Assembly: GCA_964416845.1 (NCBI GenBank)
Contig: CAYQFV010000002.1
Coordinates: 4,525 to 68,524 of the forward strand
Reading direction: 5' to 3'
Source of the DNA: an uncultured Phycisphaeraceae bacterium
Lineage (GTDB): Bacteria; Planctomycetota; Phycisphaerae; UBA1845
DNA length: 64,000 nt
The position numbers and the translations under genes were made by a program. Shown here one piece after another: positions 3,769 through 46,245 of the stretch; the stretch's first letter is position 1; every line of letters starts with the position of its first letter. The notes below the pieces were generated by a model. It had not been told where the DNA came from and did not search any database. It was given only the letters and a program-made list of their open reading frames with translations.

Positions 3769-4959
3769 TTACTTGGGCTTGGCGTTCGATAGTAGACCGG
3801 CGATCCGATCAAGCCCCGCCGAAAGCTGTTCCATACTTGAGGCGAAAGAAATGCGGACGTGATCGTCCATTCCGAACGCCGCACCCGGTACGACCGCCAC
3901 GTGGGCGTTGTCGAGCAACGTTTCGGCGAATTGGCCGCTCGACGAAACACCCAGTCTGTCGAACGCACCTCGGACGTTGGGGAAGACGTAGAACGCACCC
4001 GCCGGCGGAAGACAGTGAATGCCCGGCAGGTCGTTCAGGCGTTTGTGGACGTAGGCGCCGCGTTCGGCAAATGCGTCGCGCATCTGGTCAACACACGATT
4101 GGCTTTGGTCCAGCGCCGCTGCGTACGCGAGTTGGCAAAATGGCGGAACGCCACTCGTACCCTGCGACTGCAGCTTCGCGATTGCCCGCACGAGATCCAC
4201 AGGCCCCGCAACGAACCCTACCCGCCACCCCGTCATCGCGTAGGCCTTGGAGGCGCTGTTGAGCGTGACGGTTCGGCCATACGCGTCGTCACTCGCAGCG
4301 GCAAAGCTCAGGCATTCTCGGTCGTCAAACACCAGACGGTCGTAAATCTCGTCGCTTAGCACGGTAACATTCGTTCCCGCCACGACATCGGCGATGCCTC
4401 GAATCTGCTCGGGGCTGTAGAGATGCCCTCCGGGATTGCTCGGTGAGTTCATGACGAGCGCCCGCGTTCGATCCGTGATGGCCGCACGGATCTGGTCCGG
4501 CGGAACGCAGAATCCGGTGGACTCATCCCCGTGCACGAACACCGGCACGCCGCCGGCGAGTTTCACGATCTCCGGATAGCTGACCCAATAGGGTACTGGA
4601 ATGATGACCTCGTCACCGGGATCGAGAATCGCCTGCAAGACGAGACCGTACGCAAGCTTTCCACCGACCGTGATGATGATCTGATCTGCGGAGTATTCCA
4701 GACGGTTGTCGCGCTCGAGCTTTCGCCGCACCGCTTCCTTCAACTCAGATAACCCCGATGCCGGTTTGGAGTACCTGGTCTGACCCTCGCTAAGGGCCTG
4801 ACATGCCCGAGCGACGATGTGCTTCGGCGTTGGAAACTCCGGCTCACCCGCGCCAAAACTGATGATGTCGATGCCTTCCGATCTCAGCTTGGCTGCTTTG
4901 GCTGTGACGGCCAGCGTCGCGGACTCTGCCAACGATTGGACACGACTAGACAGTTTCAT
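3769..4959 (-). CDS. Pyridoxal-phosphate-dependent class I aminotransferase (aspartate aminotransferase-like)
   Basis: 396 aa. Motifs: FGAGEPEFPTP, NSPSNPGG, and the PLP-lysine block SASKAYAMTGWRVG. Confidence 0.85.
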   Translation of the reverse strand: MKLSSRVQSLAESATLAVTAKAAKLRSEGIDIISFGAGEPEFPTPKHIVARACQALSEGQTRYSKPASGLSELKEAVRRKLERDNRLEYSADQIIITVGGKLAYGLVLQAILDPGDEVIIPVPYWVSYPEIVKLAGGVPVFVHGDESTGFCVPPDQIRAAITDRTRALVMNSPSNPGGHLYSPEQIRGIADVVAGTNVTVLSDEIYDRLVFDDRECLSFAAASDDAYGRTVTLNSASKAYAMTGWRVGFVAGPVDLVRAIAKLQSQGTSGVPPFCQLAYAAALDQSQSCVDQMRDAFAERGAYVHKRLNDLPGIHCLPPAGAFYVFPNVRGAFDRLGVSSSGQFAETLLDNAHVAVVPGAAFGMDDHVRISFASSMEQLSAGLDRIAGLLSNAKPK

Positions 4960-42022: not shown

Positions 42023-42054
42023 TTGACCTTCAAGCTAACTCTAAGGTGTAGAAT
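42023..42054 (+). promoter_or_regulatory. MerR-type metal-responsive promoter/operator (long spacer with dyad)
   Basis: TTGACC (42023-42028), a 20-nt spacer, then TAGAAT (42049-42054). The imperfect dyad ACCTTCAAG ... CTCTAAGGT spans the spacer and overlaps the -35. This is the architecture of CueR/ZntR/CadR/MerR-controlled promoters. The first in-frame ATG (42064) is 10 nt after the -10, which implies a very short leader. Confidence 0.6.
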
Positions 42055-42063
42055 GTGAGTGAG

Positions 42064-42498
42064 ATGACAATGAAGACACGAACAGCCCAGTTGATGACGA
42101 TCGGCGAGGTGGCCCGTATGGCGAGTGTGGCGACGCCCACGCTGCGGTACTACGAGCAGGAGGGTCTCCTTTCTCCGACCACGCGGAGCCGAGCAGGCTA
42201 CCGTCTTTACAATGCCGAAGCGGTCGAACAGTTGCGGTTCATCCGCTCCGCACAGGCAGTGGGATTCACCCTCGACGACATCCGCACGCTCGCCCGGCTC
42301 GAAGGAGAGAGTGGCAAGACTTGCAAAGCGGAAGTAAGGCGGCTGCTGGGGCAACGGCTTGCGGAAGTCAACGACAAGATGAAGGATTTGAAACGCGTTC
42401 AGCAGGCATTGGGGCAAGCCCTGGACCGTTGTCAACGCTCGAATGGCGAGTGCAAGGTACTGAAGGAAATCCGCCCCACAAGACAAAGAAGGAGATGA
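42064..42498 (+). CDS. MerR-family metal-sensing transcriptional regulator (CadR/PbrR/ZntR-like)
   Basis: HTH MTIGEVARMASVATPTLRYYEQEGLL...GYRLY, then a coiled-coil dimerisation helix. There is a Cys at the helix start (GKTCKAEV) and a C-terminal C-x6-C (DRCQRSNGECKV). The start could be 42055 (GTG), 42064, 42070 or 42094. Confidence 0.85.
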   Translation: MTMKTRTAQLMTIGEVARMASVATPTLRYYEQEGLLSPTTRSRAGYRLYNAEAVEQLRFIRSAQAVGFTLDDIRTLARLEGESGKTCKAEVRRLLGQRLAEVNDKMKDLKRVQQALGQALDRCQRSNGECKVLKEIRPTRQRRR

Positions 42499-42833
42499 TG
42501 ATGGTGACAAGACGATGGACGCTGTCCGCCCTGGCGGTGGCGATGCTTGGTGTCGCTGCGCTTGGAGCGGTGAGACTGGCCGCCGCCGACTCGGGGCGAG
42601 CGGACTGCCCTGGCAAGATCGTCTGCCCACAAACGGGCAAGCTCATCTGCCGGGACAAGTGTCAGATGATTGACCAGAATCGCCCGGACTGCCCCGGTCG
42701 AGTCGTGTGCCCGCTCACGGGAAAGCTTGTGTGCAAGGATCGGTGCCCTCTCGGCGACACGGCGACGAAGAAAGGCGACGCGAAAAACGCAGATGCGAAG
42801 GACAAGCCGGCGTGCTGTCGGAAAGGCAAATGA
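42495..42833 (+). CDS. Small exported protein with duplicated four-Cys repeat (putative periplasmic metal-binding; unknown family)
   Basis: The start ATGATGATG overlaps the regulator's TGA. Signal: MMMVTRRWTLSALAVAMLGVAALGAVRLAAA|DSG, with a Tat-like RR. Two 28-aa-spaced repeats follow: DCPGKIVCPQTGKLICRDKC and DCPGRVVCPLTGKLVCKDRC. The tail is Lys-rich and ends ACCRKGK. Confidence 0.65.
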   Translation: MMMVTRRWTLSALAVAMLGVAALGAVRLAAADSGRADCPGKIVCPQTGKLICRDKCQMIDQNRPDCPGRVVCPLTGKLVCKDRCPLGDTATKKGDAKNADAKDKPACCRKGK

Positions 42834-43309
42834 CGGCTGACTGTTCCAAGGACGACCTCATTGCGGAAAGCGCGCCGCAAAGGGGCCGTCCGGGTTGGCT
42901 GCAAACGCTGATCGCCATCCCGGCGGCGGTGCTGCCACTATTGCCGAGTTTTTCGTGCCCGGTATGCGTCGCAGCCTACGCGGGCTTGCTCTCGTCGCTG
43001 GGTTTGGGCTTCCTTCTCACCGATCGCGTGCAGAGGCCCATGATCGTTGCGTTCCTGGTTGTTTCGGTGGCCAGCGTGGCCTGGACTGCGAGGCAATATA
43101 AGCGGACCGGACCGTTGGTACTTGTCCTTGTTGGCTCCGCCGGGATCGTCGCGGGACGCCTCGTGTGGAGCGTAGCACCAGCGCTGTACGCTGGCGCGCT
43201 CTGCCTTGTGACGGGCACCGTTTGGAACCTGATACTGAAGCGGCCGCGGACGAAACTTGTCACGCTGACCGTCGCGGATACCGCGCACACGAGGGGCCCG
43301 AGTTCATGA
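42830..43309 (+). CDS. MerC-like heavy-metal transport membrane protein
   Basis: The ATG at 42830 overlaps the previous TGA (ATGA). There are four hydrophobic helices. The first carries SCPVCVAAYAGLLSSLGLGFL, which is comparable to the MerC CxxC helix ending ...IGLGFL. Confidence 0.55.
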   Translation: MTADCSKDDLIAESAPQRGRPGWLQTLIAIPAAVLPLLPSFSCPVCVAAYAGLLSSLGLGFLLTDRVQRPMIVAFLVVSVASVAWTARQYKRTGPLVLVLVGSAGIVAGRLVWSVAPALYAGALCLVTGTVWNLILKRPRTKLVTLTVADTAHTRGPSS

Positions 43310-43389
43310 AGGCCCGACAAGTGTCCCTTGCGGCATCCAGCACGTTCTTGTTCCGTCCGGTCCGCTTGTAAGCGCCAAGCTCGGACTCG

Positions 43390-46245
43390 TCACCCGCCGA
43401 TGTCGGCGCTTAGGATGCGCACGATGTCGGCGCGACTCATTGTGCCGGCTCCGGGGTGGGAATTCTCCTTCAACTCGTTGCCTTGCTCGTCGATGAAGCG
43501 GTCCAACTGCTGTACGTCGACGAATACCCTGGTCGCGCCGCTGGCCCCCACGGTCGTCAGCAACGTCGGTTGAACCGGATCGGTCACGTCGATGACTTGC
43601 AGCCCGACGACACTGTTGGCCACTAGAGCGTAGTCGTCGACTCCCGGCGGTGCCATCTGGCTGGCGACGTCGACATCATTCGCGCTGCCACCGAGGTCCG
43701 AGATCGCAGCAACTTGGACGACGTTGTCAGGCTCGGTGATATCGTAGACGCGTAGGCCATTCGTCCCGGCGACGACATAAAGGTAGTCGTGCTCGCGCGA
43801 AGGCGTCGAACCGGCCGCCTCGAGGAAGTGGGTGTAGGTGTCCAAACCGGACGCTCCGGAAAGCTCAAGCCCACCGACCAGCTTCGGCGACGAGAATTCC
43901 GGCAGGAGATCAACAATACGCACGCCGAAATCCGGATCAGCCACATACGCCCTCGCGGCAAACGCCGGCCCCTTTTGATGATGGGCGTAAAGCGCTACGT
44001 CCGCTGCGTTCATGCCTGCCAGCGTGCCGGCGATGCGCGGTTCGTTGTGGTCCGAGATGTCGACGACCACCAACCCCGCGTCGCCCGCCGCGACGAACAG
44101 ATGGATGCCCCATGGAACAGCTCGGACAGCCGTGGGGATCGACACCGATGCGACCAACTCCGCCGACGTGGGATTGGCATTGTCATAGATGTTGACGCCT
44201 TCACCGGCGATCACGACGTAGAGATATCGTGCGGCGAAGCTGACGTCGATGGCGTTGATATTGTTGACTACCGTGGCAGCGGCGGTCGGCATGCCGTCTG
44301 TCATGTCAAAGATCGACAATCCGTCGCTACCGGACGCAACGTAGAGATAGTCTGCCTTTCCAGAGACCACGTTCGCACGAGAAGCCACCGCTCGCGGCGA
44401 CCCGGCGGCAAGCGTGGCGAGCAATACCGGGTTCGCAGGATCGGTATTGCGGTCGAACACGCGGATGCCATCGCTTGCCACTACGTAAGCGTCGTCGCGC
44501 GCGAGTGAATAGTTCCCCGAACCAAGCCCCAACGACGGCGGCGATCGGTGACACTCAACGCAGGTGCGCACCTCGTCACGCCCGCGGATCGTGTGCGGCT
44601 GGACCGGCTGGAGCGCCAGGCCGGACAATCCGTTGACCGTTTCGGGCATGACGAAATCGAGCTTCTTGCTGCCGTCGGCAGCGGTCACGTCTGCAATGGG
44701 TTGGCAGCCGACGATGTACGGCGAGACCTTCCCTTGGGCGTTCATGCCCATCGCGAAGTGCTTCAGGGACACGAACACCTTGTTTCCTGTGCTTGCTTTC
44801 CCCAACTCCTCCTCTCGCGTGATCAGATTGAGACCTGTGAGAGTTTCGTCGCGTTGAAAATGACAACCGAAGCAGTTGGGCATCCATGAAGCGTGGCACG
44901 CGTAACACTCCAGACCACCCTGCACCTTGAGATGGTTCTCGTTCATGGCTGCTGCTGCTTTGGCGTTGTATCGATTGGACTCGGGATTGACGACGTCCAT
45001 CACCTGAGGCACGACATGGGCCGCCCCGTTGACTTTGGACGTCAGGATGACGTCGCCGTCGCCGGTTCGCTCGACATTGCCAAGCGAGTTGCCATCTCGA
45101 TCGGTCAGCGTACCCGGCGCATCGGGGAGCCCGTGGCAGGTGCGACATTCGACCTTGGTCGCCTGATCCATGTGCCCATAGATGTTGCCGTCGCCCATCA
45201 CGCCGGCCTGCGTGTGGCAATCGATGCACGCCATGTTTCGTTCGCCATGAAGATCTTGTGGGTTCGTCTCGGCATCCGCGTAGTGATAGTTGCCGTTGAA
45301 CTTGACATCGGTCGTGCCCGCCACATCGGGTCCGGAGGGCAGTCGCGGTGGCATTTGAGACCGGCCTGAGAAGCTAAGACCAATGCGGGCACCGCGATGA
45401 TGGCAGTGGGCACACTGTGTTGAAGGGATCACGCGTGTGATCTGATGGATAACCGGGTGCCCCTGCTCGGTGTGATCGATGGACGTGTCCGCACTGCCTG
45501 ATCGACCGTCGTTGTCGTACACCATGTGACAGGCGGCGCAGCCGTCAGCGCGATAGGTCCCATCTGCCCCCTCAGCCCCACGATATCCCTTGCCCCGCGA
45601 CCAGAGATGGCAGCGGGCGCAAACTTGGCCTGGGACCGCGCGGTAGTGCGTGGCGAACTCGGCTTGGTCGAGCGATGGGTCGTACTTGATCAGGTCGATC
45701 AACTCGTCGACGGCGCCCGCTTCGGTCGGCACGTCGCCATCCTCATCGCGCACGGCAAAGTTTCCGTACACCGGCGTCTTGCTGTCCGTGACACCGTTTT
45801 GGTACAGACCGCCCGCGTAATGACCGGCCCCGGTGGCCATCAGGCCCTTGAGTATCCAGTCCACGTGTGGAACGTGACACTTGCCGCACGTCTCGCGCAC
45901 GACACGAAGGTTCGACGGGTTGACGAATTGCTGATACGGCAGGTCGTAGTCGAGCGGCGGCGTGGTCTTGTCCATGATGACCGGCAGCGTCGGCTGAACA
46001 TGGGCGCTCGCCATTTCCGCCGACGAAAAGTCTCCGCCGTGACAATCAGTGCAGTCGATCGACGCGTTGGCGTGAATGTCTTCGATCTTGTCATGACACT
46101 CGAGGCAACCAGGGTTGCTCTTCGTGAACGTCTTCGGGGGTGTCGTCGGCTCGAACGAACAACCAGCCACCACCATCACAAAACCTGTCATCGCCACAAT
46201 GCGAACGAACGAAACCATGGTCGACCTGCAGCCTGCGGTGTTCAT
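43390..46245 (-). CDS. Undecaheme c-type cytochrome lipoprotein fused to LVIVD-repeat beta-propeller-like domain
   Basis: 951 aa. Lipobox VMVVAGCS. Eleven CxxCH motifs: CLECH, CTDCH, CGKCH, CARCH, CAACH, CAHCH, CIDCH, CRTCH, CYACH, CFGCH, CVECH. The C-terminal ~370 aa contain about six repeats of the YLYVAxGxxGLxIxDxxxP type (e.g. DYLYVASGSDGLSIFDMTD, HLFVAAGDAGLVVVDISDHNEP, DYLYVVAGTNGLRVYDITEPDN). Confidence 0.8.
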   Translation of the reverse strand: MNTAGCRSTMVSFVRIVAMTGFVMVVAGCSFEPTTPPKTFTKSNPGCLECHDKIEDIHANASIDCTDCHGGDFSSAEMASAHVQPTLPVIMDKTTPPLDYDLPYQQFVNPSNLRVVRETCGKCHVPHVDWILKGLMATGAGHYAGGLYQNGVTDSKTPVYGNFAVRDEDGDVPTEAGAVDELIDLIKYDPSLDQAEFATHYRAVPGQVCARCHLWSRGKGYRGAEGADGTYRADGCAACHMVYDNDGRSGSADTSIDHTEQGHPVIHQITRVIPSTQCAHCHHRGARIGLSFSGRSQMPPRLPSGPDVAGTTDVKFNGNYHYADAETNPQDLHGERNMACIDCHTQAGVMGDGNIYGHMDQATKVECRTCHGLPDAPGTLTDRDGNSLGNVERTGDGDVILTSKVNGAAHVVPQVMDVVNPESNRYNAKAAAAMNENHLKVQGGLECYACHASWMPNCFGCHFQRDETLTGLNLITREEELGKASTGNKVFVSLKHFAMGMNAQGKVSPYIVGCQPIADVTAADGSKKLDFVMPETVNGLSGLALQPVQPHTIRGRDEVRTCVECHRSPPSLGLGSGNYSLARDDAYVVASDGIRVFDRNTDPANPVLLATLAAGSPRAVASRANVVSGKADYLYVASGSDGLSIFDMTDGMPTAAATVVNNINAIDVSFAARYLYVVIAGEGVNIYDNANPTSAELVASVSIPTAVRAVPWGIHLFVAAGDAGLVVVDISDHNEPRIAGTLAGMNAADVALYAHHQKGPAFAARAYVADPDFGVRIVDLLPEFSSPKLVGGLELSGASGLDTYTHFLEAAGSTPSREHDYLYVVAGTNGLRVYDITEPDNVVQVAAISDLGGSANDVDVASQMAPPGVDDYALVANSVVGLQVIDVTDPVQPTLLTTVGASGATRVFVDVQQLDRFIDEQGNELKENSHPGAGTMSRADIVRILSADIGG

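Follow-up and report, generated by a model that had tools for sequence, protein, structure and literature searches.

Organization and Promoter of the Operon

We analyzed a 64-kb stretch of DNA from an uncultured Phycisphaeraceae bacterium (hereafter, the window), in which three plus-strand genes, at positions 42064–42498 (gene 1), 42495–42833 (gene 2) and 42830–43309 (gene 3), form a compact operon. Gene 1 encodes a MerR-family heavy-metal sensor of 144 amino acids, gene 2 an exported protein with Cys repeats (112 amino acids from its first ATG), and gene 3 a MerC-family membrane protein of 159 amino acids. The favored reading is that of a mercury-type operon without MerA, which senses the metal and serves in its uptake or sequestration. 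A relative of the Cys-repeat protein is encoded at 69 genome loci, all of them in metagenome-assembled genomes and nearly all in Planctomycetota, and their gene neighborhoods were surveyed by tblastn. The closest relative is L070, a metagenome contig of the Joint Genome Institute (JGI) that encodes a gene 2 product 91% identical to that of the window.

The promoter, as read in the sequence, consists of a −35 hexamer TTGACC (42023–42028) and a −10 hexamer TAGAAT (42049–42054), both on the plus strand and separated by exactly 20 nt. Within this 20-bp spacer lies a MerR-type operator, a 22-bp dyad of 9-4-9 organization, ACCTTCAAG-CTAA-CTCTAAGGT (42026–42047, no strand assigned), which is symmetric at 7 of 9 positions and whose outer arms are ACCTT (42026–30) and AAGGT (42043–47). 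A TTGACC-N20-TAGAAT promoter with such a dyad across its spacer had been proposed in a preliminary description of this DNA; it is present in the window and conserved in orthologous loci. The window promoter thus has the 19–20 bp spacer with palindrome by which MerR-family promoters are recognized (PMC1526738). A standard sigma-70 scan of the window did not report it, as expected for a MerR-type site, because the scan allows only spacers of 16–18 nt. The pattern TTGACCTT-N12-AAGGTGTANNNT occurs as a single copy in the window, even when up to two mismatches are allowed, and was found in 0 of 100 shuffles.

The exact 20-base operator pattern was found in 19 of the 69 loci, each time on the operon strand, and the operator family has the consensus ACCTTAcA-N6-TgTAAGGT. 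The 50-odd regulator orthologues from related loci fall into two groups, which have either a Cx6C motif, as in the window, or a Cx8C motif. In the Cx6C group, the arrangement TTGACC-TT...AAGGTG-TAnnnT with a fixed 20-nt spacer lies ahead of merR in more than 20 loci, so that the −35 box is kept as TTGACC and the −10 box as TAnnnT, and the inner operator arms vary with their symmetry preserved, as in L052 (ACCTTCAAC-TTAG-GTTGAAGGT) and L014 (ACCTTACAT-GTAG-GTGTAAGGT). Loci of the Cx8C group have a box of this type after merR and directly before the Cys-repeat gene, and the merR stop codon often lies inside its −35 box. A second, distinct palindrome (approximately AACATTGAAC-N4-GTTCAA) was seen about 30–60 nt upstream of merR in this group (L054, L065, L021, L029, L043, L012, L039, L040 and L067), where the box preceding the Cys-repeat gene is of the form ACCTTG...CAAGG. 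This suggests that the Cx8C group has two operators, or that its regulator is controlled separately.

The genes are joined by ATGA stop/start overlaps at 42495–42498 and 42830–42833, both of which, as the preliminary description had it, can be read literally in the sequence. A third ATGA overlap at 43306–43309 opens an open reading frame (ORF) of 21 codons. Gene 2 has three tandem ATGs (42495, 42498 and 42501), and a GGAG Shine–Dalgarno sequence ends at 42494, so that 42498 or 42501 is the likelier start; coupling between genes 1 and 2 is tight for each of the three. For gene 1, the GTG at 42055, the start given in the ORF list, overlaps the −10 box and is therefore unlikely to be used. The ATG at 42064 lies only 9 nt past the −10 box, so that the operon mRNA is probably nearly leaderless; alternative starts are the ATGs at 42070 and 42094. 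No intrinsic terminator was found after gene 3, the sole terminator-like match lying inside gene 3, and shuffled sequences gave more such matches than the real one. The ratios of nonsynonymous to synonymous substitution rates (dN/dS) against L070 were 0.25 for gene 1, 0.11 for gene 2 and 0.21 for gene 3, indicating purifying selection; the module is reduced, not dead.

The MerR-Family Regulator

The product of gene 1 matched the Pfam families MerR_1 (73.5 bits), MerR-DNA-bind (58.6 bits) and MerR (56.0 bits), all over their gathering scores. Among the NCBIfam models, ZntR gave 109.5 bits, CueR 98.8 bits, MerR proper (TIGR02051) 98.1 bits against a cut-off of 150.85, and CadR/PbrR (TIGR02047) 94.9 bits against a cut-off of 151.45. 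All of these scores are under the equivalog cut-offs, indicating that gene 1 encodes a heavy-metal sensor of the MerR family that lies outside all curated specificity groups. In addition, the operon and its scanned flanks contain no P-type ATPase gene that would accompany a CadR/PbrR assignment.

The regulator has three Cys residues, C87, C123 and C130 as counted from the ATG at 42064 (plus-strand codons at 42322, 42430 and 42451), which correspond to positions 77, 113 and 120 from an internal Met. They align without gaps with C77, C112 and C119 of CadR (6JGV), which has the same Cx6C motif, and with a 2-residue gap with C82, C117 and C126 of Tn501 MerR (5CRL) and with the three ligand Cys of PbrR691 (5GPE), the latter two having Cx8C. 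The check on Cys placement put forward with the preliminary description was thus borne out, since all three residues fall on the metal ligands of CadR, MerR and PbrR. They are kept in most orthologues. Sensors for +2 ions are known by a Cys at the head of the dimerisation helix, a position that is Ser in CueR. Note that the window regulator has C-x6-C in its loop, not the C-x8-C spacing of MerR proper.

A neighbor-joining tree of regulators was built from BLOSUM distances with 100 bootstraps and five reference regulators, two of which (CueR and ZntR) were sequences entered by hand. The Planctomycetota regulators formed one clade in 89 of the 100 bootstraps, and this clade takes in regulators from operons with a true MerA; the Cx8C sister group includes those of the MerA operons L054 and L065. 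Tn501 MerR fell on the Planctomycetota side, apart from CadR, PbrR, ZntR and CueR, in 93 of the 100 bootstraps. These groupings give moderate support to placing the regulator in the mercury-type lineage despite its CadR-like loop. Its earlier designation as a CadR/PbrR-like sensor therefore holds for the Cx6C spacing, which is that of CadR, but not for its affiliation in the tree, where its neighbors are Tn501 MerR and the other Planctomycetota regulators.

The Exported Cys-Repeat Protein

The product of gene 2 begins with a predicted signal peptide or N-terminal anchor (residues 1–31, 42495–42587, plus strand), in which TRRW is followed by a hydrophobic core and by AAA and then D. Hydropathy analysis gave one hydrophobic segment (residues 12–30), and a basic N-terminus followed by a hydrophobic stretch is conserved family-wide; an AxA motif marks a candidate cleavage site. 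Two Cys repeats follow on the plus strand, R35–Q57 (RADCPGKIVCPQTGKLICRDKCQ, 42597–42665) and R63–P85 (RPDCPGRVVCPLTGKLVCKDRCP, 42681–42749), both recognized by the repeat consensus R-x-D-C-P-G-K-I-V-C-P-x-T-G-E-L-V-C-K-D-R-C-P, and the protein ends with a vicinal Cys pair, C107-C108 (42813–42818, plus strand), that stands out by its conservation. The family architecture is accordingly a signal, one to three repeats, a variable linker and a C-terminal CC. Of the 260 family proteins in which repeats were counted, 125 carry a single copy, 132 carry two copies and 3 carry three, and the tail CC is present in 228 (88%), with C107 invariant and C108 found in at least 90%. Ten Cys are invariant or nearly so across the family. 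At the eight conserved positions other than Cys, R, D, P, G, T, G, D and P each occur in at least 92% of repeats, and this degree of conservation speaks for a small fold of definite structure over a loose metallothionein.

A word-indexed search returned 267 homologues, all of them hypothetical proteins without a Pfam domain, and those with a named source belong to Planctomycetota or Phycisphaerae. A profile search of 1.84 billion cluster representatives gave 173 clusters at 50% identity (E ≤ 0.001). The Cys-repeat family is almost confined to Planctomycetota. Gene 2 itself had zero matches in Pfam, NCBIfam and PDB, a PDB profile search giving none at E ≤ 10, and no description of the family was found in the literature searched; together with the N-terminal signal, this agrees with the earlier view of the middle gene as encoding a novel exported Cys-repeat protein. 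Sub-threshold matches to EGF-like, DSL and Trm112p models among 90 family members were rejected as compositional or knuckle-like noise.

No HMA domain was matched by Pfam in gene 2 or in any of the 90 members. Since gene 2 also lacks a GMxCxxC motif, its product can be a functional analogue of MerP/HMA metallochaperones at most. YHS/TRASH models likewise had no match among the 90 members at E ≤ 1; a likeness of CPxTG...CxDxC to the YHS/TRASH pattern (CPxxG...C-x3-C) may be seen by eye only and is speculative. Variants of the Cys-repeat protein with selenocysteine (Sec) were not found. AlphaFold models of gene 2 were of low confidence, with a mean predicted local distance difference test (pLDDT) score of 55.5 from a 26-sequence alignment and 54.5 from a 90-sequence alignment; in these low-confidence models, two predicted beta-hairpins recur per protein, one in each repeat.

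Natural fusions place the Cys repeat beside known metal-binding domains. Specifically, P0151 joins a Cys repeat to an HMA domain, and P0219, P0239 and P0240 are long exported proteins that combine a Cys repeat with thioredoxin-like (STCPAC), HMA and DF-family domains. These fusions, together with the gene order, support the earlier proposal that the middle gene occupies the position of a periplasmic metal shuttle. The gene 2 product is likely a periplasmic thiol ligand and probably represents a previously unnamed periplasmic partner of mercury-transport systems.

The MerC-Family Protein and the Lost Fourth Gene

Gene 3 (plus strand) passed the threshold of the Pfam family MerC (PF03203) with 39.3 bits against a gathering score of 27.6, covering profile positions 5–107 of 108. 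The NCBIfam MerC equivalogs NF010318 and NF033784 gave 19.7 and 19.0 bits, respectively, under their cut-offs of 170 and 140. In a pairwise alignment with Tn21 MerC, C43-P-V-C46 of gene 3 (42956–42967, plus strand) falls on C22-A-A-C25, and LGLGFL on IGLGFL. The Tn21 MerC query was checked against an annotated plasmid merC and was 100% identical to it. The CxxC in the first transmembrane helix is essential in Tn21 MerC. The hydropathy profile of gene 3 fits four membrane segments, and the MerC-like character that the preliminary description had read from SCPVC...LGLGFL is thus confirmed.

The 21-codon ORF that overlaps the end of gene 3 (MKARQVSLAASS..., 43306–43371, plus strand) is the remnant of a fourth gene, as its first ~11 codons align with the start of a gene at 1738–2100 of L070. 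The L070 contig carries the same three genes and the same convergent gene for an undecaheme cytochrome with LVIVD repeats, plus this fourth gene, of which ~390 nt are missing in the window. Judged by this alignment, the three-gene form seen in the window arose by deletion from an operon of four genes.

The fourth gene of L070, which was called as two ORFs and is really one, encodes a lipoprotein signal and an HMA domain, in whose metal motif (GLSCPF-TGA-VHN) an in-frame TGA takes the second position. The full gene was found in L070, L005 (4788–5144), L006 (4788–5183), L007 (2370–2726) and L052 (4255–4599), following merC in L005, L006 and L007, and the Cys-repeat gene in L052. Its homologues have CxxU or UxxU motifs, and that of L040 has CxxC. 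All of the TGA forms have a hairpin, AGCGCUC-GGUC-GAGCGC, ~19 nt downstream, with a compensatory change in L007, and the Cys form has no such hairpin. The hairpin and the TGA fit a bacterial selenocysteine insertion sequence (SECIS) element and the NCBIfam family 'UxxU metal-binding (seleno)protein', suggesting that the fourth gene of the relatives likely encodes a selenoprotein with a SECIS element. Among the relatives with the trio, only L001 and L003 gave no match to the HMA gene (tblastn, E cut-off 1e-3).

Conservation in Related Genomes

Of the 64 loci with enough sequence upstream, 53 have a MerR homologue immediately ahead of the Cys-repeat gene and in the same orientation, and 5 more loci have one nearby in another arrangement. 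MerC is directly downstream in the closest relatives, and the full trio is found in ~9 loci and L070; the combination of MerR, Cys-repeat and MerC genes is therefore conserved as a unit elsewhere. Directly downstream of the Cys-repeat gene, MerC or MerT-HMA is encoded in ~31 loci. In ~20 loci, the downstream gene encodes a MerT-family membrane domain with a C-terminal HMA domain, often preceded by an N-terminal DF-family or zf_CopZ domain. The order in L054 and L065 is merR, Cys-repeat gene, merA and merT-HMA, and the L054 reductase scored 552 bits on TIGR02053 against a cut-off of 454. This adjacency census indicates that the conserved core is MerR plus the Cys-repeat gene, whose usual company is mercury-family transport and sometimes reduction. 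Other genes found next to the Cys-repeat gene encode Phenol_MetA_deg outer-membrane beta-barrels, a triple-YHS protein and a PEGA-domain protein.

MerA was not found in the 64-kb window, where tblastn with a TIGR02053-positive MerA gave a best E of 0.57. Homologues of MerT, MerT-HMA, HMA and DF-domain proteins were not found there by tblastn either, and no gene for a P-type ATPase, CDF protein or other efflux system is present in the operon or its flanks. The absence of MerA, MerT and a P-type ATPase from the vicinity noted in the preliminary description was thus upheld. By the presence of MerA, a canonical mer operon is therefore lacking within the window, and MerA occurs in the orthologous operons L054 and L065.

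Several features of the related loci stand beside this picture. In L019 (4442–5116) and in the regions downstream in L005, L006, L007, L040, L052, L067, L002, L004 and L023, genes for a secreted triple-YHS protein and for Phenol_MetA_deg barrels were seen; the barrels could be an outer-membrane entry route. In L010, L020, L021, L029, L042–L044 and L049, as well as L013, the transporter, MerT-HMA or MerC, has at its N-terminus either a thioredoxin-like domain of the 'DF family (seleno)protein' type (YFEGCPNH...) or zf_CopZ, and the carriers of either domain are three-part transporter fusions. L005 (6511–8159) and L006 (6316–8302) have a second module of merR and merT-HMA ~2.5 kb downstream, and the window has no such second module. 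The Cys-repeat gene of L025 contains an in-frame TAG (4094–4096) and the merR of L044 an in-frame TAA, which suggests pseudogenes or assembly errors; since the stops are TAG and TAA, the two are likely pseudogenes and not Sec variants.

Proposed Mercury-Type Metal Handling and Alternative Readings

We consider it reasonably probable that the window carries a chromosomal operon for the sensing and handling of a soft divalent metal of the mercury type, without a reductase. The mercury-type assignment, which refines the first reading of the module, follows from the partner families found elsewhere (MerC, MerT-HMA and MerA), from the grouping of the regulator in the tree, and from the richness of the proteins in CC, CxxC, CxxU and UxxU motifs. 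A preprint by Haft (10.1101/2022.07.06.499078) argues that CC and CU motifs are characteristic of the places where proteins contact heavy metals. The sequence comparisons establish the anatomy of genes and motifs, the family memberships, the conserved promoter and operator, the linkage to MerR, MerC, MerT-HMA and MerA, and purifying selection. The identity of the metal, its binding by the repeats, the direction of transport and its cytoplasmic fate, either at a MerA encoded elsewhere or by sequestration, are inferences.

In the proposed mechanism, a regulator dimer on the 9-4-9 dyad would hold the promoter off across the over-long 20-bp spacer. Hg(II) or a similar thiophilic divalent ion would bind to Cys87 in one subunit and to Cys123/Cys130 in its partner, and the metal-bound regulator would untwist the spacer, allowing transcription of the nearly leaderless polycistronic mRNA. 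As this mRNA includes the regulator's own gene, autoregulation would be positive. The gene 2 product would be exported through its N-terminal signal and may trap the metal in the periplasm with its two 4-Cys repeats and the CC pair, from which the four-helix MerC-family protein, with CPVC in helix 1, would take it and carry it over the inner membrane. The ancestral operon would also have made an HMA lipoprotein, often with Sec in its binding motif, the gene for which has been lost from the window.

Several observations weigh against mercury-type handling. The regulator has a CadR-type Cx6C instead of the Cx8C of characterised MerR, its best match among solved structures is CadR (77 bits, compared with 69 bits for MerR), it stays under every NCBIfam equivalog cut-off, and the tree that places it has five reference regulators, including the two hand-entered sequences (CueR and ZntR). 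Gene 3 scores far under the NCBIfam MerC equivalogs and lacks the C-terminal Cys pair of Tn21 MerC. The models of gene 2 are of low confidence (pLDDT ~55), metal binding by the repeats is putative, and the four periplasmic Cys of each repeat could form structural disulfides instead, with sub-threshold EGF-like matches in 76 of 90 members. In ~32 loci, the gene next to the Cys-repeat gene does not encode a Mer transporter, and MerA is absent from the 64-kb window and, in most related loci, from within 4 kb. The missing reductase is the chief weakness of the mercury-type reading, and import of Hg(II) without reduction is normally harmful. Modules of merR and merT without a reductase are, however, reported to be common and transcribed in genomes from deep-sea sediments (PMC12484752).

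The features of the regulator would also suit a module for Cd(II), Zn(II) or Pb(II) in place of Hg(II), with a sensor of the CadR/ZntR type and the Cys-repeat protein as a periplasmic buffer for these metals. CadR, the best structural match, has identical Cys positions (77, 112–113 and 119–120) and the same Cx6C, ZntR is the top NCBIfam score (109.5 bits), and ZntR sites, too, have a 22-bp palindrome within a 20-bp spacer (PMC1526738). However, the regulator is under both the CadR and the ZntR equivalog cut-offs, and the 93 of 100 bootstraps split it from CadR, PbrR and ZntR. Moreover, neither the operon nor its flanks contain a P-type ATPase, CDF or other efflux gene, the recurrent partner genes (MerC, MerT-HMA and MerA) are all of mercury families, and an importer would make little sense for resistance to Cd or Pb. 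We therefore regard a Cd/Zn/Pb module as unlikely. A somewhat slimmer chance is given to the view that the Cys-repeat protein carries no metal at all and is a disulfide-rich protein of the periplasm or envelope that metal stress induces, such as a sacrificial thiol/disulfide buffer or a structural protein whose repeats are small disulfide-knotted modules. Its predicted extracytoplasmic location, the strong conservation of the eight positions other than Cys named above, which suggests a rigid fold, the ~32 loci without a transporter after the Cys-repeat gene and the EGF-like Pfam matches in 76 of the 90 members would all agree with this. On the other hand, those EGF-like matches are all under the gathering score (17 bits compared with 27), 88% of members have the vicinal CC tail, the repeat is found fused to HMA metal-binding domains, and its gene is invariably the first structural gene after a MerR-type operator.

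The cut of the HMA lipoprotein gene to a 21-codon stub by the ~390-nt deletion, the lack of MerA in the window and the pseudogenised copies elsewhere (the in-frame TAG of L025 and the TAA in merR of L044) could be taken as signs of a decaying, functionless remnant of a larger mer operon. However, none of the three reading frames is disrupted, promoter, operator and coupling signals are likewise intact, dN/dS against the closest relative is 0.11–0.25, and the trio recurs in several relatives, among which only the two loci named above gave no HMA match. Decay of the window copy is thus very improbable. Returning to the reading as a mercury-type operon, we extend it to a broader proposal, to which we give slightly less than an even chance. 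In this proposal, the Cys-repeat protein would found a new, largely Planctomycetota-specific family of periplasmic binders of soft metals (Hg), encoded by a gene that is always the first structural one after a dedicated MerR-type operator. Acting with MerC or MerT-HMA and the Sec-containing HMA lipoprotein, it would provide reductase-independent mercury capture and uptake. Such a pathway could account for the large excess of mer transport genes over merA in marine sediment genomes.

Comparison with Known Systems

Regulators of the MerR family and transporters of the MerC/MerT kind belong to textbook knowledge; those of the window are new members of these known families, and the promoter is of a known kind. 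The Cys-repeat family and its fixed partnership with a dedicated MerR operator are unannotated in the libraries queried (Pfam, NCBIfam and PDB), and no description of them was found in the literature searched. In firmicutes, MerR sites are 9-4-9 palindromes in 20-bp spacers, with merR first in the operon (Permina et al., PMC1526738). The mer operon of Bacillus RC607 (PMC1526738) shares with the window a merR that is first in its own operon, the 20-bp spacer, the 9-4-9 palindrome with ACC...GGT ends, and Mer-family transporters that follow. Unlike it, the window operon has no merA or merB, its regulator has Cx6C instead of Cx8C, and an unrelated Cys-repeat gene stands between merR and the transporter gene; in addition, the firmicute operator reads ACCGTGTAC...GTACAGGGT, compared with ACCTTAcA...TgTAAGGT in the window operon family. 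The outer ACCTT/AAGGT bases of the window operator also look like those of CueR sites.

The gene 2 product resembles MerP of Tn21/Tn501 in being small, exported, encoded beside a membrane transporter and under MerR control, with Cys ligands that could pass Hg(II) to the CxxC/CC of helix 1. MerP is a periplasmic Hg(II)-binding protein of the HMA fold, and the likeness rests on gene position and on what is established for MerP. The two differ in that gene 2 lacks the HMA fold and GMTCxxC, and has two 4-Cys repeats and a CC tail in place of one CxxC. Because the Cys-repeat protein coexists with HMA domains in many relatives (MerT-HMA, the HMA lipoprotein and the P0151 fusion), it is an additional component and not a simple replacement. 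Gene 3 and Tn21 MerC, a transporter of organomercurials and Hg(II), share the Pfam MerC domain, four hydrophobic segments, the CxxC in helix 1 and (L/I)GLGFL. They are only 24% identical, however, gene 3 is without the C-terminal Cys pair, and some relatives (L013) have an N-terminal thioredoxin-like DF domain. With CadR of Pseudomonas putida (6JGV), its best match among solved structures, the regulator shares the three Cys positions and Cx6C; it differs from CadR in its sequence (37% identity), in falling on the opposite side of the 93/100 split, in having no divergent cadA ATPase gene, and in its operator of the ACCTT...AAGGT type.

Zhang et al. reportedly described in 2020 a bioaccumulation mechanism mediated by MerP/MerT. 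Genomes from deep-sea sediments carry merR/merT modules far more widely than merA and transcribe them more highly (PMC12484752). These MerA-less merR/merT(P) marine modules resemble the window operon in combining a regulator and a transporter without a reductase, but the reports on them describe neither the Cys-repeat gene nor the selenoprotein HMA lipoprotein nor an operator of the window type. If the gene 2 product binds Hg(II), it would be a new component of the mer toolkit and would represent a new small Cys-rich metal-binding fold. The module would, if this is true, also provide a handle on reductase-free mercury handling in a sediment-abundant phylum that includes Hg methylators. Interest in it would be greater if both Hg binding and reductase-independent handling hold true. 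The operator–regulator pair, in its Cx6C and Cx8C variants, is in addition a candidate source of parts for metal biosensors.

Neighboring Genes

The genes flanking the operon have housekeeping functions (PdxJ, ClpS, DHDPS and UvrB). Synteny of the window flanks (ClpS, PdxJ and the cytochrome gene) was found in none of the 69 loci. The operon ends convergently against a minus-strand gene at 43390–46245, which encodes a protein of 951 amino acids with C-terminal LVIVD repeats; counting its CxxCH haem motifs gave 11, in line with its earlier naming as an undecaheme cytochrome gene. L070 keeps the same convergent cytochrome neighbor (953 amino acids), and it is the only relative to share it.

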